This document shows positions 2,985-51,117 of a stretch of 64,000 nt of DNA, piece by piece (position 1 is the stretch's first letter; every line of letters begins with the position of its first letter). The stretch is taken from IMG/VR virus record IMGVR_UViG_3300046787_000206, positions 30,963 through 94,962 of that record; one strand, 5' to 3'. This DNA comes from a virus. The position numbers were made by a program, and so were the translations under genes. The notes beneath the pieces were generated by a model that made no database searches, was not told the origin of the DNA, and worked only from the letters and a program-made list of their open reading frames with translations.

Positions 2985-4316
2985 TTGCCAGGTTCAGTAA
3001 AAATTAGTGGTGCTCAGCGCACTGTCGCTGCCCCTTACGTAAAAGTAAATGGTACTTGGCGTACTGCAAGCATTGCTTACACTAAGGTAGCTGGAACTTG
3101 GCGTCAGTGGTATGCCGCTAGCATTACTGATGACTTTAACCGTGCAGATGCAGCTTCCCTTGGGACCGTAAGTAACGGAGTTACCTCCTGGACAAATACT
3201 AGAGGCACATGGGCAATCGTATCCAATGCTGCTGTTGGTTCTGGAACTACTCCGCTAGCCTCTGTAACTAACCCGCTGCAGTCTTCTAACTACGAGCTAA
3301 AGCTAGACCTACCGTCTGGCTCAGGCTCAGGCCTTGCCTTCTGGGTGACAGACGCAGACAACTGGTACGGCGTAGTAAGCGGAGCTACAAGCACAACTAC
3401 TTACTCTTGCCCTAATGGCGGAACACTATCAGGCACTACCTGTAGTGGTACCAGTACCTATGCGGCTAGCTCTTCTACTACCACTGTCTCAGACCCTATG
3501 TACTACAGCTGTCCATCAGGCGGCTCACTAAGCGGCACTACTTGTTACACCACCAGTACTTATGGCGCTCAGATTAACTGTTCTGGCCCGTACTACTACA
3601 ACCCTGGCGGCTCTAGTACCTACAACGCAGGCCCAGCAACCTACAGCGGCGATACCTTTGCTAAGTCTAGCGGCGGCAATTGCGCTAACTGCAGTTCAGG
3701 CCAAAACTGTTACAGCGGAGGCTGCTACAACCGTGGGTACTACTGGTGTCCTGGTGGCGGTGTCGCTATTAACATGGACTGCTACATAACTACCACCACT
3801 CCTGCAGGGTGCAGTTCTGGTAGCCAAGGCACCCCTTGTGGTAGCGGTTGCTACAGCTACAGCTACAGCTGCCCATCTGGCGGAACTCTAAGCGGCAGCA
3901 CCTGTACTGCTAACGGCTCGTACTCAGCACAGGCTAATTATCCAACTCACCAAGAGACCACTTACTCTTGCAACTCTGGGGACACTCTTAACGGGACTAC
4001 CTGTACTCACCCATTCTCGTACTCAGCCACTGGCACCACCGTTTACGATTACTTCTACAAGGTAGTTCGCATGGCTGCTGGAACCCTGTCTACTTTGGTT
4101 CAGTACACAACTCCATCAAGAGTTGCTAGTCTTAAAGTATCCACCTCTAATAGCTCTATTACAGCAGTTGCCTACACGGGAGCAGCTCAGACAGGTACTG
4201 TTATAACAAATAGTTATACAGCTACGTCTCCTGCTCTTACAGCGGTTGCTGGAATTGTTGGAGTAGGAGCTGGGTACCAATCAAGCAACACCGTGGATAA
4301 CTTCAACCTTAAGTAG
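2985..4316 (+). CDS. Cys/Ser/Thr-rich fibre or receptor-binding protein
   Basis: TTG start with GGAGG RBS; YVKVNGTWR/YTKVAGTWR N-terminal repeats; four YSCxxGxxLxGxTC repeats. Confidence 0.65.
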   Translation: MPGSVKISGAQRTVAAPYVKVNGTWRTASIAYTKVAGTWRQWYAASITDDFNRADAASLGTVSNGVTSWTNTRGTWAIVSNAAVGSGTTPLASVTNPLQSSNYELKLDLPSGSGSGLAFWVTDADNWYGVVSGATSTTTYSCPNGGTLSGTTCSGTSTYAASSSTTTVSDPMYYSCPSGGSLSGTTCYTTSTYGAQINCSGPYYYNPGGSSTYNAGPATYSGDTFAKSSGGNCANCSSGQNCYSGGCYNRGYYWCPGGGVAINMDCYITTTTPAGCSSGSQGTPCGSGCYSYSYSCPSGGTLSGSTCTANGSYSAQANYPTHQETTYSCNSGDTLNGTTCTHPFSYSATGTTVYDYFYKVVRMAAGTLSTLVQYTTPSRVASLKVSTSNSSITAVAYTGAAQTGTVITNSYTATSPALTAVAGIVGVGAGYQSSNTVDNFNLK

Positions 4317-4322
4317 GACTAC

Positions 4323-4481
4323 ATGGAACCTGTAAAAATCGAAGACCCAAAAGAACGATACGAAATCTGCAAGTCTTGCCCTGAATTCTTTAAGCCAACC
4401 AGACAGTGCCGTGAGTGCATGTGCTTCATGTCGGTAAAGACTAAAGTACACGAGGCTACTTGCCCACTAGGAAAATGGTAA
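4323..4481 (+). CDS. 52-aa Cys-rich protein (DUF6171-like); not in ORF track
   Basis: AGGA RBS; MEPVKIEDPKERYEICKSCPEFFKPTRQCRECMCFMSVKTKVHEATCPLGKW. Confidence 0.75.
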   Translation: MEPVKIEDPKERYEICKSCPEFFKPTRQCRECMCFMSVKTKVHEATCPLGKW

Positions 4482-4486
4482 CCAAT

Positions 4487-23445: not shown

Positions 23446-23715
23446 ATGGACACATTAATCGACATCATTATTTCGGGAATCGCTGTCAGCTTCATTGTTG
23501 AGTACCTAATCATGGTAACTGGCGGCCTATTCAATGCTCGAATCGTACGAGCAATTCTAACCCTACCCTTAAGCGCAATTGCCTGTTGGTATCTGGATAT
23601 CTTCGGATTTGAGCTAATTGTTGCTGCGCCCGCTTCCGCTTTCCTATCTCTTGCTGCTACACTTCTTGTGAATCGACCTACAGAAGTTACGCAGGTCGTT
23701 TCACGACGACGATAG
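23446..23715 (+). CDS. Membrane protein, holin-like candidate
   Basis: Three hydrophobic segments and a basic C-terminus (SRRR). Confidence 0.5.
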   Translation: MDTLIDIIISGIAVSFIVEYLIMVTGGLFNARIVRAILTLPLSAIACWYLDIFGFELIVAAPASAFLSLAATLLVNRPTEVTQVVSRRR

Positions 23716-26193: not shown

Positions 26194-27477
26194 ATGGCAG
26201 CGGACAACGAGTACCGTTTAGTCAGTAAGGTCATTAGCGACCGCAACATCATTCCTGTGCTTGAGCGAGGAATTAAGGACGACTGGATTGTAGACGACGA
26301 CTTGCGTCGTATCTGGAAGTTCGTTCGTGAGCACTACGTAAACTACCGTGAAGTTCCTACGGCAGTTACTGTTAGCGACCACTTCCCTAACTTTAAAGTC
26401 CTTAAGGTCGAAGACACAATCGACTACCTTATCGACACTATGGTTGCCTTCCGCCGTAACCTACTCACTCGTAATGGTGTACAAGATGTTGTACAAATCA
26501 TGGCGAAGAACGACCACGAGGCAGCCCTGCTCGAACTGAGCAAGATTGTCACCGTAGTCAATGACCAAGGTGTCATCGGCACTACCCACCTAGATGTTAC
26601 CCAGGACCCAGATAAGTTCTGGGAGGACTACACCAGCATCCAGAATCACAAGCTTCTGGGGGTACCTACAGGTTTCAAGAACATCGATGAGGCAACAGCT
26701 GGTCTGCAAGGCGGACAGCTAATCACAGTGATTGCTCCACCTAAGACTGGTAAGTCGCAGATTAGCCTCCGCATTGCTGCCAACTGTCACGAAGCAGGAA
26801 TGGTGCCAATGTTCCAGTCCTTCGAAATGAATAACCACGAACAGTCTCAGCGCTATCTATCCATGACTGCGCACATTTCTAGCAACAACTTGCGTCGTGG
26901 AAAACTAGACAAAGAAGAAGAGCGCCGTCTAAAGGACCGCATCGAAGACCTGAAGGAAGAACAGCCTTTCCACTTCGTGGACGCAGTCAACGGTCTGACT
27001 ATTGACTCTCTAATGGCTAAGGCAGAGCAGCTAAAGCCAGACGTACTATTCGTTGATGGTGTGTACCTTATGTTGGACCAGGTTACTGGTGAGGCCAACA
27101 CCCCGCAGGCTCTGACTAACATTACTCGTGGCTTGAAGCGTGTCGCACAGCGCCTGAACATCCCTGTAATTATTTCTACCCAGACTCTCCTATGGAAGAT
27201 GAAGGGCGGAAAGGTTTCTGCTGACTCAATCGGTTACTCATCATCATTCTTCCAGGACTCAGACGTAATCCTAGGGCTAGAGCCAGTAGAAGAAGACCCT
27301 AGTGTTCGTCTGCTTAAGGTAGTTCAGGCACGTAACTGCGGTCCAGCAGAGGCTCCATTGACTTGGAACTGGGACACTGGTTGCTTCCACGATGAGCCAG
27401 ACCCAATCACTGGCGCTGGAACTTGTACTTTCTGCAGCCCTGCCACTGCTTCATTCCCGAATGCGCCACGTCTATGA
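26194..27477 (+). CDS. dnaB: DnaB-like replicative helicase
   Basis: GVPTGF, APPKTGKS, SFEM, FVDGVYLM, QDSD motifs. Confidence 0.9.
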   Translation: MAADNEYRLVSKVISDRNIIPVLERGIKDDWIVDDDLRRIWKFVREHYVNYREVPTAVTVSDHFPNFKVLKVEDTIDYLIDTMVAFRRNLLTRNGVQDVVQIMAKNDHEAALLELSKIVTVVNDQGVIGTTHLDVTQDPDKFWEDYTSIQNHKLLGVPTGFKNIDEATAGLQGGQLITVIAPPKTGKSQISLRIAANCHEAGMVPMFQSFEMNNHEQSQRYLSMTAHISSNNLRRGKLDKEEERRLKDRIEDLKEEQPFHFVDAVNGLTIDSLMAKAEQLKPDVLFVDGVYLMLDQVTGEANTPQALTNITRGLKRVAQRLNIPVIISTQTLLWKMKGGKVSADSIGYSSSFFQDSDVILGLEPVEEDPSVRLLKVVQARNCGPAEAPLTWNWDTGCFHDEPDPITGAGTCTFCSPATASFPNAPRL

Positions 27478-28463
27478 TGATTGATGTCCTAGAGGTCATT
27501 GAAGCACTTGGCCTAGATTACTCGGAACACGGTCACGAGGCTAACGCCCTATGCCCACAGCACTTGCAGCGAACAGGTAAGTCTGACAACTCACCGTCTT
27601 GGTGGATTAACCTCGACACGGGACAGCACATCTGTTTCTCTTGTGGGTACAAGGGCAACATTCTACAACTAGTCTGTGACATTAATGAGTTCTACCTAAA
27701 GAACTGGGGAGACACCTACTCCTACGACTACGCTACTGCGGAGACCTGGCTAGGCAATGTATCCCAGATTCCTATGGAGCAGCTAGAGGAGATGCTGTCA
27801 AAGCTTCCTTCTTACGTAGGGGCTGTGCCGAAGCCACTAGATATGTCGGAGTCACGCCTTGCTGTTTTTGTGGAGCCACCTCAGTCTGCTCTTGACGCAA
27901 GAAACCTGACCCCAGAAGCTTCGGCAGAGTACAGCCTTTTGTGGGACGCCCCTAAGTCCACATGGATTCTTCCGCTTCGTGAGCCTCACTTCAACCGACT
28001 AATGGGATGGCAGGAGAAGGGGACTGTGCACCGCACTTTCTTTAATCGCCCACCAGGACTCCAGAAGTCAAAAACCCTATTTGGAATCGAGAACCAAAAT
28101 GAGCATCTGGCTATTGTTGTTGAATCTCCTCTTGATTGTGTTCGTATTGCTTCCGCTGGTATTCATGGCGCTGTGGCTACTTGCGGCGCATCTCCTTCTG
28201 AGGAGCAAATCAAGCTCCTCCGATACTCGCAGAAGATTGTAGTAGCGTTCGACAACCCAGCAATCGATAAAGCAGGAGAAAAAGCCTGTAAAGCAATGCT
28301 AGACTGGGGACGTAAATACGGTCTTAATCTCTTCTACTTCAACTATGGTAGTAGTAGTAAAAAAGACCCAGGAGACATGACTGATGAAGAGATTCTCTGG
28401 GGTATTGAGAATGCCAAACCATCAGTACTTGGAGAACTAGCCTATGTTCAAGGGAACGCTTAA
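27474..28463 (+). CDS. DNA primase (CHC2 zinc finger + TOPRIM)
   Basis: CPQH...CFSCG zinc finger; VESPLD and AFDN TOPRIM; KDPGD. Confidence 0.88.
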   Translation: MMIDVLEVIEALGLDYSEHGHEANALCPQHLQRTGKSDNSPSWWINLDTGQHICFSCGYKGNILQLVCDINEFYLKNWGDTYSYDYATAETWLGNVSQIPMEQLEEMLSKLPSYVGAVPKPLDMSESRLAVFVEPPQSALDARNLTPEASAEYSLLWDAPKSTWILPLREPHFNRLMGWQEKGTVHRTFFNRPPGLQKSKTLFGIENQNEHLAIVVESPLDCVRIASAGIHGAVATCGASPSEEQIKLLRYSQKIVVAFDNPAIDKAGEKACKAMLDWGRKYGLNLFYFNYGSSSKKDPGDMTDEEILWGIENAKPSVLGELAYVQGNA

Positions 28464-30012
28464 GCCTTATCAGGTCGAAGCCGTCGAAAAGATGGTGGAG
28501 AAAAAGAGCATTCTCGTAGCATACGAGATGGGTCTAGGTAAGACTCCTATGACAATCGCTGCCGTAGAGGCTTTGCGAGATGCGGGCCAGACTAACGGAA
28601 CCACGCTAGTGCTTTGTCTTGCCAGCCTTAAGTACCAATGGCAAAAAGAAATCCTGAAGTTCAGCGACTCTACTGTAGAGGTCATCGACGGCACCAAAGC
28701 TCAGCGAGCTAAGCAATACGATGAGTGGGATACTTTCGATTATGTAGTTATGAACTACGAGCAGGTTGTCAACGACTGGGAGATTATCAAGGCCAAGCAT
28801 CCTGTCGCCATCATCTGTGACGAGGCTACAGCTATTAAGGGGTTCAAGGCTAAGCGAGCAAAGAAGGTAAAGGAGCTCGCTAAAAGTATTCCCATTAGGT
28901 TTGCTCTAACAGGAACCCCAATCGAGAACGGTAAGCCTGAAGAGGTGTTCTCCATCATGCAGTTTGTTAATCCTAAAGTACTTGGCCGCTTTGACTTGTT
29001 CGATAAGGCGTTCATCGTTCGCAATCACTTCGGTGGAGTACAGCGATACAGGAACATCCCCACCTTACACAAAGCTCTGATGGATTACACGGTCCGTAAG
29101 TCTCAGAAAGATGAGGATGTAAAGCCCTATCTACCAGACGCTGTTTATCGTGAGCCGCTCATCATCAGCTTGGATTCGAAGTCCCAGCGTCTATACAACC
29201 AGATTGCTCTAGACCTTCAAGAGCTTCTATCAGAAGCCAGCGAAGCATTTGGAAGTAACTTCAATCTTGCTGCACACTACGGTCAGACCTATGACCCAGG
29301 CGACCCAGCCAACCAGATGCGTGGAGAAATTATGTCTCGCATCTCCGCATTGCGTATGTTGTGCTCAGGTCCAAACCTGTTGAAAATTAGTCACGACCTA
29401 TTTGAGGGTCACACAGGTAAAGGCAGTGCGTACATACACTCTCTAGGAGAGCTAGTGGAGGACGTCACTAAGAACCCTAAACGAGACGCTTTAATCTCGT
29501 ATCTATCTGACCATTTAGGCATCGACGAATCCTACAAAGCTGTAGTATTTTCTTCCTACTTAACATCGGTCTACGACATTGTTTCCGAGCTCGCTGCCAA
29601 AGGCATCGAAGCGGTTGCATATACAGGAGAAATGAATGCTAAACAAAAAGAAGAAGCCAAAGTCAAATTTCAGACTACAGCTGCTTGTAGGGTACTTGTT
29701 AGTAGTGATGCTGGTGGATACGGTGTGGACCTTCCTCAAGCAAACTTGCTTGTCAATTATGACCAGCCTTGGTCTTCTGGCCTCGCTGTCCAGCGAAACG
29801 GACGAATCAACCGTACGTCGTCCACGTGGGAAACAATAACCGTACAAGACATCCTTGTAAAAAATTCCATTGAACAGCGTCAGTATGATATGCTCAAGCA
29901 AAAGGGCAACGTTGCAGGAGCAATTCTCGACGGCGCTAACATTAATGAAAAAGGTGGAGTAGACTTAACAGTCGGAAGTCTAATGAACTTCCTCACCAAT
30001 AAACTAATCTAG
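28444..30012 (+). CDS. SNF2-family helicase
   Basis: EMGLGKT, ICDEA, LTGTPIEN, GVDL, QRNGRINR. Confidence 0.9.
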   Translation: MFKGTLKPYQVEAVEKMVEKKSILVAYEMGLGKTPMTIAAVEALRDAGQTNGTTLVLCLASLKYQWQKEILKFSDSTVEVIDGTKAQRAKQYDEWDTFDYVVMNYEQVVNDWEIIKAKHPVAIICDEATAIKGFKAKRAKKVKELAKSIPIRFALTGTPIENGKPEEVFSIMQFVNPKVLGRFDLFDKAFIVRNHFGGVQRYRNIPTLHKALMDYTVRKSQKDEDVKPYLPDAVYREPLIISLDSKSQRLYNQIALDLQELLSEASEAFGSNFNLAAHYGQTYDPGDPANQMRGEIMSRISALRMLCSGPNLLKISHDLFEGHTGKGSAYIHSLGELVEDVTKNPKRDALISYLSDHLGIDESYKAVVFSSYLTSVYDIVSELAAKGIEAVAYTGEMNAKQKEEAKVKFQTTAACRVLVSSDAGGYGVDLPQANLLVNYDQPWSSGLAVQRNGRINRTSSTWETITVQDILVKNSIEQRQYDMLKQKGNVAGAILDGANINEKGGVDLTVGSLMNFLTNKLI

Positions 30013-46616: not shown

Positions 46617-47198
46617 ATGAGTGGATTGATTTCACCTGATGGTAAACCACTAATTGGTTCTAAAAAGATTGAGGGACCAGTAATCCGTCTGTTGCTGTGC
46701 CTCGAGTGCAAGACACTCGAAGAGCTGCCAGACTACGAGGGCCCAAGCAACCACGACTACCTGTTGGAGATTGCTGTAGAGAAGCACAAGAGCCCATACT
46801 CAGGAGAACCTCACAACGGGAAGCTGTTCAAGCTGCCAGTCAAGGTCTGGGGTAATGGAGAGCAGCGTGAGGCAATTCTAAAGGAGTTGTCTGACGGAGC
46901 CCGTGGTCTAAACGCACTGAACCCAGACGATGACCCAGAAAAGAGCTTCTACCAAGTCAAGATGCAGTTTGCGGAAGACGCAATGGCGTGCTGGATGAAG
47001 CACAACCAGCCAAAGAATGACTGCGATGACTACCAGAAGCCCTCCAAGCGCCTACTACCAGACACCGCAAAGGAACGTGGTGAACTAGGTCTGCCTAAGC
47101 CAGAGCACCTGGAAGGCCCAAAGATTTACACATGCAATTTCTGCCCGTATCACGGAGAAGTTGTACAACGTAAACGTCGCATCCTCGGATTATATTAG
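46617..47198 (+). CDS. Cys/His-rich metal-binding protein
   Basis: AAGGAG RBS; CLEC, CWMKH...CDDY, CNFCPYH. Confidence 0.75.
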   Translation: MSGLISPDGKPLIGSKKIEGPVIRLLLCLECKTLEELPDYEGPSNHDYLLEIAVEKHKSPYSGEPHNGKLFKLPVKVWGNGEQREAILKELSDGARGLNALNPDDDPEKSFYQVKMQFAEDAMACWMKHNQPKNDCDDYQKPSKRLLPDTAKERGELGLPKPEHLEGPKIYTCNFCPYHGEVVQRKRRILGLY

Positions 47199-47206
47199 GA
47201 GTAACA

Positions 47207-47500
47207 ATGTCACAAGCAGAAACATATTTTCTAGTAGTAGTAAACGAAGATGGTACATTCACCACATATGCGGAGATTCCATCAGAGCTGCCAGCGGTAA
47301 CCCGCCGAGCAACAAACTACGAGGTGTACCAGACCTGTAAGTCAATCGCAGAAGAGTTTGACACCCAGATTCTAGTAGACCGCATCACCAAATCAGTGGT
47401 AGGAACGCTAATGCCACAGACACAGACCGTGGCTGATGTAGTAAAGGACAAGCTCAAGGAACGTGGGATTGACCCAGAAAGCGTAACCCCAGCAGAATAG
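47207..47500 (+). CDS. Hypothetical protein
   Basis: AGGAG RBS. Confidence 0.75.
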   Translation: MSQAETYFLVVVNEDGTFTTYAEIPSELPAVTRRATNYEVYQTCKSIAEEFDTQILVDRITKSVVGTLMPQTQTVADVVKDKLKERGIDPESVTPAE

Positions 47501-47509
47501 AATAGTCTT
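47498..47509 (+). promoter_or_regulatory. Possible -10 element for a leaderless mRNA
   Basis: TAGAAT-N6-ATG(47510), no SD sequence. Confidence 0.55.
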
Positions 47510-48415
47510 ATGACTATTTCTGGTGGCAACCCAACATCATACTTCAGCGCACCCTCGTCAACCTTGGACCCAAAGTTGTTCGAAGGTCGTGCGATTAAGT
47601 CGTGGGCCAGAACTGGAATTCTAAGTATCCTAGGAGATTTCCTCTCACTACGTTACCGACACCAAGACCTGTGGGCCCATGCGTGGCTCGCAGGTTCTGG
47701 TGTTTCGTACCAGTGGGAGTCTGCTAGAGAGCCAGGAGACCTAGATTGCCTAGTAGGCGTAAACTACGTTCAATTCCGTAAGGCTAACCCTACATTTGCA
47801 GGTCTAACTGACAAAGAGATTGCAGACCAACTAAACGAAGAGTTTAGAGATGAGTTGTACGGTCAGACAGAGCACTGGAATGGTTACGAGCTGACGTTTT
47901 ACGTCAACCCAGGGGCGTCGGACATTCGAACCATCAAGCCATACGCAGCGTACGACCTAAAGTACAACGAATGGACAGTGTACCCAGACCCACAGCAGTC
48001 AGCACCGACGAACCAGGAATGGGAGTCAGTAGTAGCGGCGGACAAGTCTAAGGCAGACCAGGCCTCCATTAGATTTACTGGAGCGTTAAACGCCCTACAG
48101 GTAGCGCACAACGACGCACTGCGACGCAATGCAGAGTCAAAGATGTGGGCTGCTGGACACCAGGCCCTGGCAATGTACCAGGAGATTCACACGAATCGTA
48201 GTATGGCATTTTCTCCACAAGGAAGTGGTTATGGAGATTTCCATAACTACCGTTGGCAAGCAGCCAAGCGTGAAGGCACAATCAATACGCTGCGCACGAT
48301 TCGTGAGCACCTAAAAAATATTAGTTCAGCAAGTGCATCCTCCACCTATGGAGTAGATTTGCCATCAGCGGACGTATTAGTTCGTAGAGCAGCAATCTAC
48401 AGGAACACCATTTGA
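47510..48415 (+). CDS. Pol-beta-superfamily nucleotidyltransferase
   Basis: LAGS...PGDLDCLV (hGS-x-DhD) with a later acidic residue in YELTFYV. Confidence 0.75.
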   Translation: MTISGGNPTSYFSAPSSTLDPKLFEGRAIKSWARTGILSILGDFLSLRYRHQDLWAHAWLAGSGVSYQWESAREPGDLDCLVGVNYVQFRKANPTFAGLTDKEIADQLNEEFRDELYGQTEHWNGYELTFYVNPGASDIRTIKPYAAYDLKYNEWTVYPDPQQSAPTNQEWESVVAADKSKADQASIRFTGALNALQVAHNDALRRNAESKMWAAGHQALAMYQEIHTNRSMAFSPQGSGYGDFHNYRWQAAKREGTINTLRTIREHLKNISSASASSTYGVDLPSADVLVRRAAIYRNTI

Positions 48416-48510
48416 CACTTAGTTATTGCATTATTTGCAGACACCTATTGGAATTCGGTTTATGTACCGATGAAGATTGCACATGCGATTGTCCAGAGGA
48501 TAAATATTAG
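48412..48510 (+). CDS. 32-aa Cys-rich micro-protein; not in ORF track
   Basis: TTG start overlapping the NTase stop (TTGA), AGGA RBS; MTLSYCIICRHLLEFGLCTDEDCTCDCPEDKY. Confidence 0.55.
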   Translation: MTLSYCIICRHLLEFGLCTDEDCTCDCPEDKY

Positions 48511-48519
48511 GAACAGCCA

Positions 48520-49005
48520 ATGCACATACTCGTAGAACTAGATGGCGTATTAAGAAGTAGGACCCAAGAGCCTATCGCCACTGGTATTCAGATGGTAGGC
48601 GCACTAAGTGCGTACAATCAAATCTCCTTAATGACAGATGCCTCCACCGCAGAGGTTACGCAGTGGTTGGATGTCAACAAAGTTGTAGATTTTGACAATG
48701 TGTTCGACGCATCCCTGAGCCTAGCGGGAGATGAGCTGCAGCACAGGCAGATTAAGTTTGCCCGAAGCAAAGGTAAAGTAGACCTATTCATCACTAATAA
48801 CCCCCTATTGTGGGCATATGCGTTTGATTTAGGTATCCCAAGCATTATGTTCGGAGTTCCGTCATACACACGGCCAGAGTTCCGCCCAGATGCACCACGT
48901 AAAGTACGTGCCTGGAATGAGATTGAAGAAGCAATCGAAAAGCAGAATGCCATGAGAACCCAGGATGCCAGACTCACACGCACAGAGGCGTTGAATTTTG
49001 AGTAA
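48520..49005 (+). CDS. HAD-fold protein (motif I degenerate)
   Basis: ILVELDGVL resembles hhhDxDGVL with D replaced by E. Confidence 0.65.
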   Translation: MHILVELDGVLRSRTQEPIATGIQMVGALSAYNQISLMTDASTAEVTQWLDVNKVVDFDNVFDASLSLAGDELQHRQIKFARSKGKVDLFITNNPLLWAYAFDLGIPSIMFGVPSYTRPEFRPDAPRKVRAWNEIEEAIEKQNAMRTQDARLTRTEALNFE

Positions 49006-50491
49006 AGTCATATTCGCTGGATGTGAAATTCCATCAAACCGCACACTACTGGAGCGTAGTGGAGTGGAGAATGTAATGTTGTCATACTGGGGCCTCCGTA
49101 AGCGTGGGTTGCCAAAGACAAAAGCGTACCTAATCGGAGAGCAGTTCGAACCCCACCTGAAGGTGTGGGTTGATAGTGGAGCAACGCAGGCAGACCAGGC
49201 AAACCTAAGTCGCCAAGAGCTGGAAGACTACGCCGCAGATTACGAAGAGTTTATCGCCATGAATTATGAGCGTATCGAAGGCTGGGTAGAGTTTGATTCC
49301 CAAGTTCTAGGTTTGCCGTGGATTCAGCAGCAGCGAGCAGCGTTCGAGAACGACCCGAAGATGTGGGTAGTGTGGCATGAGCAGTATAGTACCGCCCTCC
49401 TACAGAAGTGGGCAGAAGAATACCAAAACATAGCCATTACAGGGGCCGCAGTGGAGGCTGTGACGTCGCTGAGCGCCATTACACGGAGTCTAGGAGCAAA
49501 GTATCCAGTACAGTTCCATGGGCTCGCTGTGGCGAAGCCAGACAACCTCCGACAGATTCCATTTGCCACTACCAGCACATTAAGTTGGTTGTCACCAATG
49601 CGTCGTGGGGAAACAATTATATGGGACGGCATGAAGTTGGCCCGTTACCCAAAAAAGATGAAAGCCCAAGCACGACCAAGGTACAAGTCGGTAGTGGAGA
49701 AGGCTGGTTTAGATTTCAAGAAGTTCGTAGACGATGACACAACGGAAGCCACAAGGGTAGCCGTTTGGTCCTATTTACAGTTAGAGGTAGCAATGGATAA
49801 GGATAGACCTAAGTTCGGAGTCATCAAAGGTGGCAAAGTATCTGATAACAGTGATGACACCCTATACACTGGTTTGATGGAAATGGAGGGGTACCTGTCT
49901 AATAACAGTGACTCAGACATGCGGAAACTAGAACGGTCAGAAGTTATCGAAAGAGACCCATCTGAGGTAGTTTCAATGCCAGTTGTAGGCTACCAAATGA
50001 AGACCGTAGTAGAGACTGAAAATGGCATAGATGTACTAAAGGATGTCGCTGTTGTACAGTCTAATTCGACGTCGTTAAGACAGTGTGACACCTGTTTCGT
50101 AGCGGCAAACTGCCCCGCATTTAAGCCTCAAAACACCTGTGCGTTTAGTCTGCCAATAGAGGTAAAGACCCCAGAGCAGTTAAAGTCGTTGAATACCGCA
50201 TTATTAGAGATGCAGGCCCAGAGAGTAATGTTTATGCGGTTTGCAGAAGAATTGAATGGTGGATATGCGGACCCGAATGTGTCGCAAGAGATTGACCGTT
50301 ACCAAAAGATGTTAAAGAACATGAAGGAGTTGGATGAGCAAAAGGAGTTCATCCAAATCACTGGGTCACGTAGTTCGAGTGGCGGAGTATTGTCCGCTAT
50401 TTTTGGCGATAAAGTTCAAGCCATGAAAGAGTATCCAACACCGATTTCAGAGGAGCAAACTACGTACGTTATCAAAGATAAACTAGAGTAG
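48998..50491 (+). CDS. TGT/DpdA-like TIM-barrel protein fused to a Cys4 helical C-terminal domain
   Basis: MLSYW, VWVDSGA, EFD, VVWH, FHGLA, STLSW motif order; C-terminal CDTC...CP...C. Confidence 0.6.
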   Translation: MSKVIFAGCEIPSNRTLLERSGVENVMLSYWGLRKRGLPKTKAYLIGEQFEPHLKVWVDSGATQADQANLSRQELEDYAADYEEFIAMNYERIEGWVEFDSQVLGLPWIQQQRAAFENDPKMWVVWHEQYSTALLQKWAEEYQNIAITGAAVEAVTSLSAITRSLGAKYPVQFHGLAVAKPDNLRQIPFATTSTLSWLSPMRRGETIIWDGMKLARYPKKMKAQARPRYKSVVEKAGLDFKKFVDDDTTEATRVAVWSYLQLEVAMDKDRPKFGVIKGGKVSDNSDDTLYTGLMEMEGYLSNNSDSDMRKLERSEVIERDPSEVVSMPVVGYQMKTVVETENGIDVLKDVAVVQSNSTSLRQCDTCFVAANCPAFKPQNTCAFSLPIEVKTPEQLKSLNTALLEMQAQRVMFMRFAEELNGGYADPNVSQEIDRYQKMLKNMKELDEQKEFIQITGSRSSSGGVLSAIFGDKVQAMKEYPTPISEEQTTYVIKDKLE

Positions 50492-50549
50492 TTTTATCTG
50501 ATAACAGTGTTACTCACGACATGAATCGTGTTGGACCTGTATATAGGGG

Positions 50550-50588
50550 GGTGTGGCCCCAACACAAACAACTGTGTTAGGGCCCACC
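50550..50588. terminator. Hairpin between convergent operons
   Basis: GGCCCCAACACA / TGTGTTAGGGCC imperfect stem. Confidence 0.55.
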
Positions 50589-50592
50589 TCCT

Positions 50593-51117
50593 TTAGTTTT
50601 TATACCCTGCTACTAGACGGCGTAGGCTACCAGAGAAAGAGTCTTTGGTTACTCCAGCCATGTCAGCTAACTCAGCCAAACTAAGGGTGGGGTTGTCTAA
50701 ACGTAGCTGTGCTGCTTTGAGAGTTGCTTCAGGCACATTACCATTAGCTAACTTAAGTGCGGCTTCAATCTTGCCCCTGGCCGCTTCACCAGACTTTGCA
50801 GCACGTAGGCTGTTAGACCTTGCTAACGCAATCTCCTTGTTACCTGTCTTAGGTAGTTCGTCCTCATGAATACGGCGCTTTGTACGCACACGACGAACGA
50901 CGCCCGTACGCTCTGATGTAGTGAGGCCTCCCCAAATACCCTCGTACTGATTGTCTATTGCTACCTGCAGGCAGTCAAACTTGATGCTGCAAGTAGCGCA
51001 TACCTTCTTGGCACGCTCTACTGTTCCGTAATAATCAGTAAACGGCTCAGGGAAAAACAACTCTGGGTCAGCGTTCTTACACGCAGCCTGAGTCATGTCT
51101 AACTCTTCTATGTTCAT
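50593..51117 (-). CDS. WhiB-family domain fused to WhiA-like C-terminal HTH
   Basis: N-terminal AAC..ADPELFFP, C..C.....C, GIWGG; C-terminal VPEATLKAAQLRLDNPTLSLAELA...TKDSFSGSLRRL matches the WhiA HTH pattern. Confidence 0.8.
   Translation of the reverse strand: MNIEELDMTQAACKNADPELFFPEPFTDYYGTVERAKKVCATCSIKFDCLQVAIDNQYEGIWGGLTTSERTGVVRRVRTKRRIHEDELPKTGNKEIALARSNSLRAAKSGEAARGKIEAALKLANGNVPEATLKAAQLRLDNPTLSLAELADMAGVTKDSFSGSLRRLVAGYKN

Follow-up and report, generated by a model that had tools for sequence, protein, structure and literature searches.

The DpdA family is already known, as are the phages that carry it without further 7-deazaguanine genes. Phage DpdA1 enzymes, such as those of Enterobacteria phage 9g and Pseudomonas phage Iggy, insert preQ0 into DNA. 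In a 2019 survey of phage 7-deazaguanine genes, the largest group consisted of 'DpdA-only' phages (group 3), including BRock (gp36, APC46298) and GiJojo (gp181), and for this group a host-supplied preQ0 was proposed (Hutinet et al. 2019); the literature lists gp36 simply as a DpdA homologue. The structure of the bacterial DpdA from S. Montevideo assigns the acid/base role to Asp95, the role of nucleophile to Asp256, and base recognition to Asp130, all three of which are invariant in DpdA/TGT proteins (PMC10164549). Here, we describe a four-gene unit with a DpdA-like protein in a 64,000-nucleotide stretch of viral DNA (the window), corresponding to bases 30963-94962 of the 94,962-bp IMG/VR virus record IMGVR_UViG_3300046787_000206, which is 99% complete (CheckV).

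We consider it likely that this unit is not a standard 7-deazaguanine system. Our preferred reading, held tentatively and at somewhat less than an even chance, is that it descends from a phage DpdA system but has diverged and lost the insertion of 7-deazaguanines, and that it combines a non-exchanging binding unit with the chemistry of a nucleotidyltransferase (NTase). The literature that we searched contains no description of such a module, nor of the features that characterize it: the lost Asp, an obligate pseudo-HAD protein as partner, linkage to an NTase, and a leaderless promoter that is conserved. All four open reading frames (ORFs) that had been proposed in an earlier, sequence-only reading of the window were confirmed in place, and the unit is laid out as follows:

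47498-50600, plus strand: whole predicted transcription unit, with -10 hexamer, four ORFs and terminator hairpin
47498-47503, plus strand: candidate leaderless promoter; -10-like hexamer TAGAAT ending 6 nt ahead of the NTase start codon
47510-48415, plus strand: predicted NTase (ORF1), 301 aa, ATG start
48412-48510, plus strand: Cys6/His micro-protein (ORF2), 32 aa; optional member
48520-49005, plus strand: HAD-like protein (ORF3), 161 aa, with a degenerate motif I
48998-50491, plus strand: long-form DpdA/TGT-like protein (ORF4), 497 aa, TTG start, with an 8-nt overlap with the HAD-like gene
50545-50600, plus strand: terminator-like hairpin of ~20 bp with a U-rich tract after it; the DpdA-like and WhiB genes converge here

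Catalytic residues of the DpdA-like and HAD-like proteins

As judged from sequence comparisons, ORF4 is homologous to established phage DpdA. Its full length is covered by a match to phrog_887 ('queuine tRNA-ribosyltransferase'; E 1e-62), it shares 33% identity with BRock gp36, and it aligns with six phage DpdA1 proteins (9g, Iggy, Sonali, phiFN37, VpKK5 and Vid5) at a probability of 84.7% and an E value of 6.7e-6 (hhalign; residues 52-264 of ORF4, 199 columns). The Pfam TGT and DpdA models do not match ORF4, and profile searches of PDB sequences with ORF4 and with its Cys4 domain returned nothing meaningful. The protein consists of a barrel-like N-terminal domain (residues ~1-265), a variable acidic and Ser-rich linker, and a C-terminal Cys4 plus helical domain that starts at about nt 50048. 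A single-sequence AlphaFold2 (AF2) model of ORF4 has a predicted local distance difference test (pLDDT) score of 33 and is unusable for fold assignment. The TGT Zn motif C-x-C-x2-C-x22-H is absent, and in its place stands a separable domain with four invariant cysteines (C363-x2-C366-x5-C372-x8-C381). This domain can be regarded as a module of its own because Bacteroides phage BS162P1 encodes the barrel and the Cys4 region in two neighbouring genes (L049:2851-3678 and 3728-4483). Other short relatives of the Cys4 domain are mostly gene fragments on short contigs; two such fragments (P0349 and P0354) carry the automatic JGI label 'adenine-specific DNA glycosylase', a weak hint at a MutY/EndoIII Fe-S loop.

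The V-D59-S-G-A motif, noticed in the sequence-only reading as DSGA, is present. Only two Asp residues are invariant in the DpdA1 alignment, D72 (in D-S-G-A-F) and D215 (in D-S-S-S-W), and two independent alignments place D59 of ORF4 at D72 of 9g and Ser193 at D215. The first of these, the general acid/base of the D-S-G motif, is D59 in 24 of the 27 close relatives and Glu in the remaining three. The D215-equivalent is the residue at W-4 of the S-x-S-W motif. It is Asp in Bacillus phage BCD7 and in all six DpdA1 proteins, which are the phages with preQ0 genes; Ser in 27/27 close relatives, in BRock and in four prophage copies; and Ala in GiJojo and in the deep lineage L050. The question raised by the sequence-only reading, whether the barrel lacks catalytic residues, receives a divided answer: the DSG Asp is kept, and the other invariant Asp has given way to Ser193 or Ala, so that ORF4 lacks the second catalytic Asp. 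Other parts of the pocket have changed as well. The close relatives have T/V/A/M/I (position 63) in place of the base-stacking aromatic after DSGA, which is F76 in DpdA1 and Tyr in BCD7 and BRock, and the Gly-Gly loop (G162-G163, invariant in DpdA1) is not conserved, with G/Y/S/N at position 149 of ORF4. Retained are D/E59-S-G, E98-F-D100, H174, W197, E205 and the four cysteines. Asp182 (K-P-D) was considered as a relocated nucleophile and rejected, as prophage relatives have S-P-P there.

The loss of the invariant Asp argues against any base-exchange reaction. A conceivable, though unlikely, alternative is that ORF4 is still a base-exchanging transglycosylase that inserts a 7-deazaguanine made by the host, or some other base, into DNA or tRNA, using a relocated acid such as Glu205 (G-[ED]-T). 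Asp/Glu59, Asp100, His174 and Trp197 would suit such an enzyme, and the acidic residue at 205 is conserved in close relatives, BRock, prophages and BCD7. BCD7, with its preQ0 genes, has both Glu205 and the Asp, however, so Glu205 is not a replacement acid, and the stacking aromatic and the Gly-Gly loop have disappeared together with the Asp.

The supply of precursors points in the same direction. The absence of que genes, first noticed in the window, extends to the whole record: QueC, PTPS (QueD), GTP cyclohydrolase I (FolE) and radical-SAM families have no Pfam match in its 94,962 bp, and the part outside the window has no que pathway either. Positive controls in these searches match in well-known genomes, and BCD7 scores as one of them. 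QueC and QueD were also not found in BRock and GiJojo, and the clade without the nucleophile coincides exactly with the absence of que genes. A supply of preQ0 by the host has been proposed for the DpdA-only phages. True QueC is indeed encoded by three of the five actinobacterial host genomes with prophage-like copies; the other two lack it, and none of the five contains a TGT (Pfam). Host-supplied 7-deazaguanine therefore cannot be a general explanation.

Retention of the general acid/base Asp together with loss of the covalent nucleophile would also fit a hydrolytic DNA glycosylase, or a former of abasic sites, in which Asp59 activates water and the Cys4 domain serves as an Fe-S DNA-scanning module. 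Such an enzyme could be used against host DNA or in repair, with the NTase processing the resulting ends. The Cys4 motif includes C-x2-C-x5-C, as does the cluster loop of EndoIII/MutY, and the two C-terminal fragments with a glycosylase label agree with this. We nevertheless regard both the enzyme and its pairing with the NTase as quite unlikely, as three relatives have Glu in place of Asp59 and further residues of the pocket have eroded. The JGI labels were assigned automatically and span the Cys region only, and neither PDB nor Pfam gave a glycosylase match.

ORF3, directly upstream of ORF4, is HAD-like at best and is no canonical phosphatase. Where HAD enzymes show hhhDxDG, its motif I reads V-E-L-D-G-V-L, with Glu at the nucleophile position. 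This Glu had already been noticed, but the change is not merely one of Asp to Glu, as both acidic positions drift: across 27 relatives the first is E/D/Q/S and the second D/S/Q/E, and in BRock, GiJojo and the prophages the motif is V-V-E-G. The D-x-D of HAD motif I is consequently lacking in ORF3, and most members have a non-acidic motif-IV region (F-I-T-N-N-P). Conservation is highest in a C-terminal block, E-F-R-P-D-A-P-x3-R-x-W, that does not correspond to a HAD motif. None of the 27 members matches a Pfam HAD family, and a profile search of PDB sequences gave no match. Structural neighbours in the ESM Atlas include Hydrolase, HAD_PNKP, NT5C and Acid_phosphat_B clusters (TM 0.52-0.62), which is weak evidence; the fold assignment also draws on depositors' labels, 'hydrolase' or 'phosphatase'. 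In every locus examined, at most one inserted ORF separates the HAD-like gene from the DpdA-like gene downstream of it. Taken together, ORF3 is probably a pseudo-phosphatase that partners the DpdA-like protein. The earlier suggestion that the unit makes and removes a nucleotide signal, with a phosphatase step, finds no support, as the acidic positions of the HAD-like protein drift freely.

Both proteins are strongly conserved, with mean column identities of 66% (HAD-like) and 75% (DpdA-like) across 27 sequences, indicating purifying selection rather than decay. Strong conservation in spite of lost catalytic residues is also what would be expected of pure pseudoenzymes acting as decoys or inhibitors that block a host nuclease, a defence sensor or a nucleotide signal. 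The presence of the NTase family inside giant phage proteins with ParB_N, GNAT and 2H domains might be seen in the same light. Nevertheless, the Cys4 domain and the kept DSG and EFD motifs are better explained by nucleic-acid binding, and the genes lie within a replication arm, not among early genes, making decoys a very doubtful explanation.

Linkage of the genes across relatives

A gene-neighbourhood survey, which the sequence-only reading had called for, bears out the linkage of the NTase, HAD-like and DpdA-like genes. The order 193-aa Cys protein, ~100-aa protein, NTase, optional micro-ORF, HAD-like protein, DpdA-like protein is found in 32 of 33 IMG/VR loci whose DpdA-like genes show 60-84% identity; the single exception is a locus without upstream DNA. 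The set of NTase, HAD-like and DpdA-like genes is also collinear in BRock, GiJojo, L050, L051 and L054, and the linkage persists at 25-37% protein identity in three deep lineages. Among 50,697 phage records, the NTase, the HAD-like protein and the DpdA-like protein have matches in one and the same set of five Streptomyces phages.

Five actinobacterial prophage-like loci, with endolysin, HNH and SLT genes nearby, differ in one respect. In all of them the HAD-like gene is directly upstream of the DpdA-like gene, and in none of them is an NTase found within 6 kb of the pair. The core of the module is therefore the HAD-like/DpdA-like pair, with the NTase as a frequent partner that is co-transcribed in virulent-looking phages. 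The absence of the NTase from these loci, and the unrelated ORFs that are now and then inserted between unit genes in several others, would agree with a simpler view, in which an NTase, a small hydrolase-like protein and a decaying DpdA are neighbours through phage ancestry only and share no function. We consider this very unlikely, because the genes co-occur at low identity in the deep lineages with conserved order and promoter position, because the HAD-like gene is beside the DpdA-like gene in every locus, and because strong purifying selection rules out decay.

ParB-like genes are occasionally found near these and related genes. One relative has a ParB-like ORF (G-H-H-R-L) between the HAD-like and DpdA-like genes (L035:5587-5985). 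In Arthrobacter phage Sonali and Fusobacterium phage phiFN37, which have true DpdA1 genes, a ParB-like gene stands immediately before the DpdA1 gene (L040:587-1180 and L041:746-1231). These neighbours recall the ParB-like DpdB partner of bacterial DpdA.

The nucleotidyltransferase, the micro-protein and the transcript

ORF1, which had been recognized as a Pol-beta-like NTase, is predicted to be an active enzyme with a minimal/KNTase-like layout, and it is the only enzyme of the unit with an intact catalytic centre. The Pol-beta motif hG[GS]-x9-13-Dh[DE]h with its third carboxylate is present as A-G62-S63-x13-D77-L-D79 and E127. Across 77 homologues, down to ~31% identity, D20, G62, S63, D77, D79, T129, Y145, H227, R230, G238, G240 and G256 are invariant, and E127 is nearly so. 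An AF2 model built with this 77-member alignment (pLDDT 95.7, predicted template-modelling score 0.89) consists of an N-terminal minimal-NTase domain (~residues 13-155) and a C-terminal helical bundle (~166-282). In structural comparisons (VIA), the N-terminal domain matches 1ylq (Z 6.6-6.7, 88-89 residues, root-mean-square deviation 3.2-3.5), HI0073/1no5 (Z 6.4, 21% identity) and the MNT antitoxin 8xeo (Z 6.2); the Z values are modest, and the modelled fold is that of an alpha/beta NTase. The C-terminal domain has generic helical-bundle matches only, and such matches dominate both VIA lists.

Other searches gave less. The NTase has no Pfam, PHROG or PDB sequence match, including in an alignment-based profile search of PDB sequences, and Foldseek of the model against the PDB returned nothing at E <= 1e-3. 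Among the weak Foldseek matches, NTases that have a helical C-terminal domain are over-represented, including ANT(6)-Ib (top row, E 0.04), LinB, AadA and CD-NTases. Matches of the model in BFVD are uncultured phage proteins, one of which is annotated as an NTase (E 5e-8). ORF1 has the GS...DxD...E motif in common with minimal NTases (MNT of HEPN-MNT pairs, HI0073), with N-terminal domain matches at Z 6.0-6.7, and it has the same NTase-plus-helical-domain layout as the aminoglycoside enzyme ANT(6). It differs from all of these in a conserved N-terminal segment of its own (T-S-Y-F-S-x-P...L-D-P-x-L-F), and it belongs to none of them at the sequence level. No HEPN partner gene was recognised near the NTase, where no dedicated HEPN search was made, and the conserved residues of its C-terminal domain are H227-x2-R230, not the HEPN R-x4-6-H.

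The NTase family is large, with 1,442 proteins at E <= 1e-3 in a 90%-clustered collection and 542 representatives in a 50%-clustered one. Single NTase queries from distant members yielded few new loci. Giant phage proteins (600-2,850 aa) also contain the domain, together with ParB_N, GNAT, 2H-phosphoesterase or DUF7178 domains; P0223, P0252, P0260 and P0228 are examples (870-2,850 aa). We take these giant proteins to resemble the injected 'polyvalent' counter-defence proteins of phages. Four further members (P0129, P0149, P0154 and P0162) carry a low-complexity Ser/Thr/Gly-rich insertion of 150-250 aa inside the NTase catalytic domain, directly before a conserved Y-E/S-V-T-F-Y-V strand.

Between the NTase and HAD-like genes, the hidden 32-aa Cys6/His protein of the window has counterparts of 30-36 aa in the same slot in 17 of the 33 loci (15 distinct sequences). 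Their pattern is C-x2-C-x-H-x6-8-C-x4-C-x-C-x-C, followed by an acidic tail; its six Cys and its His are all conserved, and the remaining positions vary. Loci without the micro-ORF leave no gap, and BRock-like phages also lack it. On this pattern of conservation, we regard the micro-ORF as a real but optional gene of the unit.

The unit is probably transcribed as a discrete leaderless transcript. No Shine-Dalgarno sequence was found before the NTase ATG, and the TAGAAT hexamer reported by the sequence-only reading as a leaderless-type -10 element is conserved in position: 28/28 distinct related loci have a TANNNT hexamer, mostly TAAACT, TAGACT or TAGAAT, whose end is 6-7 nt from the NTase ATG, although the upstream coding sequence differs between loci. 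The arrangement is kept in BRock (TAAACT-N6), GiJojo (TAGACT-N7) and L050 (TAGAAT-N6), whose proteins are only ~35-40% identical to those of the window. Within its own genome the strict hexamer-start arrangement is rare (4/159 ORFs); in a generic promoter scan, matches were not in excess over shuffles, so that a lone consensus match would mean little. At the other end, the terminator region (50488-50600) folds at -45.8 kcal/mol (z -4.5), and 0/200 shuffles fold equally well. The three other ORFs with TA[AG]A[AC]T-N6/7-start, at 23446-23715 (plus strand) of the window and at 26691-27929 and 29407-29730 (both plus strand) of the genome, may be further leaderless transcription units of the phage.

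Two syntenic genes precede the promoter of the unit on the same strand:

46617-47500, plus strand: two genes, encoding a 193-aa Cys6 protein and a 97-aa protein, ahead of the unit promoter

They are collinear with the unit in 30-31 of the 33 loci and have no family match in Pfam or PHROG. The 193-aa protein (46617-47198, plus strand) accompanies the module in 31/33 loci, has six conserved Cys, with C-x2-C pairs and a Y-T-C-N-F-C-P-Y-H motif, and has a homologue in BRock gp42 (E 6e-29). The unit itself stands at the 3' end of a long plus-strand arm of genes for replication and nucleotide metabolism (DnaB, primase, SNF2 helicase, PolA, RecA, a Cas4-like exonuclease, ThyX, dNMP kinase and RuvC), which converges on a minus-strand operon. 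The gene convergent with ORF4 (50593-51117, minus strand) encodes a WhiB domain (Pfam E 2e-17) and a WhiA-type C-terminal helix-turn-helix (E 3e-8) in one protein. This WhiB gene indicates an actinobacterial host, as do the nearest cultured relatives, which are Streptomyces phages, and the location of the prophage-like relatives in Streptomyces, Kitasatospora and Saccharothrix.

Possible function and comparison with known systems

The sequence-only reading had proposed a different chemistry from that of TGT/DpdA enzymes, such as base exchange in DNA or RNA. The first part holds, in that the genome has no 7-deazaguanine pathway and the chemistry therefore probably differs from that of standard DpdA systems; the loss of the Asp speaks against base exchange itself. 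In the reading that we prefer, the DpdA-like/Cys4 protein would be a non-exchanging recognition subunit that binds nucleic acid, probably DNA, and the HAD-like protein would be its obligate structural partner. The co-transcribed NTase would supply the chemistry, transferring a nucleoside monophosphate onto a nucleic-acid end or base, a protein or a small molecule. The location of the unit, last in the arm of replication and nucleotide-metabolism genes, suggests DNA as the target, during replication or soon after synthesis; the purpose would plausibly be to protect this DNA or to counter a host defence. As precedents for such a change of role, we would liken ORF4 to the non-catalytic QTRT2 subunit of eukaryotic TGT and to the repurposed TGT-like domain of archaeal ArcS, both without the catalytic Asp. 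A more specific version, in which the TGT-fold protein presents a flipped base or DNA site to the MNT-type NTase to give a nucleotidylated, so far unseen mark on DNA (or RNA), seems unlikely to us. If true, it would be a new mark in actinophages that form, with environmental and Streptomyces members, a very abundant group. Repair of tRNA was rejected as a function, as the window has no tRNA genes and the HAD-like protein is without catalytic acids.

Several points weigh against the recognition-subunit reading. Because the NTase is missing near the pair in the five prophage-like loci, the pair can work without it, and the NTase may have an independent function and merely share the operon. In the giant multi-domain phage proteins, NTase-family domains likewise occur without any DpdA-like domain. 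The equivalence of Ser193/D215 to the nucleophile Asp256 of the bacterial enzyme is drawn from motif order and spacing, not from a direct alignment: H196 and D215 are 19 residues apart in 9g, and L236 and D256 are 20 apart in the bacterial enzyme. Searches with the 9g DpdA and the DpdA1 profile did not reach 7UI4 or any PDB TGT/DpdA entry. The barrel and retained pocket of the DpdA-like protein and the HAD fold are predictions, as is the partnership of the HAD-like and DpdA-like proteins, and the choice of DNA over RNA as the target is a guess from context.

For the actinophage branch described here, the presence of a DpdA protein would be no signature of 7-deazaguanine DNA. A pseudo-HAD protein always accompanies it, and in most cases an intact NTase does so too, with a conserved promoter of its own. 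The family is accessible in cultivable Streptomyces phages (BRock, GiJojo, LuckySocke and Alone3), and a new NTase activity would annotate thousands of phage genes, given the size of the family.

Among known systems, the DpdA1 proteins of phages 9g and Iggy share the D-S-G-A, HG and S-x-S-W motifs with ORF4. They are shorter (~310 aa), have no Cys4 domain, keep both invariant Asp residues, and adjoin FolE and QueD. Closer in architecture is gp21 of BCD7 (YP_007005872), a long-form DpdA that lies within a FolE/QueD/QueE/QueC cluster. It consists of the same two modules as ORF4, a barrel N-terminal domain (profile E 4e-20) and a Cys4 C-terminal domain (E 2.5e-16), with the DSG, E-x-D, HG and S-x-x-W motifs in common. 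Unlike ORF4, it keeps the Asp (G-D-S-T-T-W) and the aromatic after DSGA, is 757 aa long with an extra middle segment, and has neither a HAD-like nor an ORF1-type NTase neighbour.

Also close are the systems of the DpdA-only phages BRock and GiJojo. They differ from the window in an extra gene between the HAD-like and DpdA-like genes, in an endolysin inside the wider block, in having no micro-ORF, and in the V-V-E of their HAD motif I. Several features are shared with the window: BRock gp36 and GiJojo gp181 are 33% identical to ORF4 over 94-98% of its length and have lost the Asp, their genomes are without que genes, and both phages carry the NTase, HAD-like and DpdA-like set with a leaderless -10 before the NTase.

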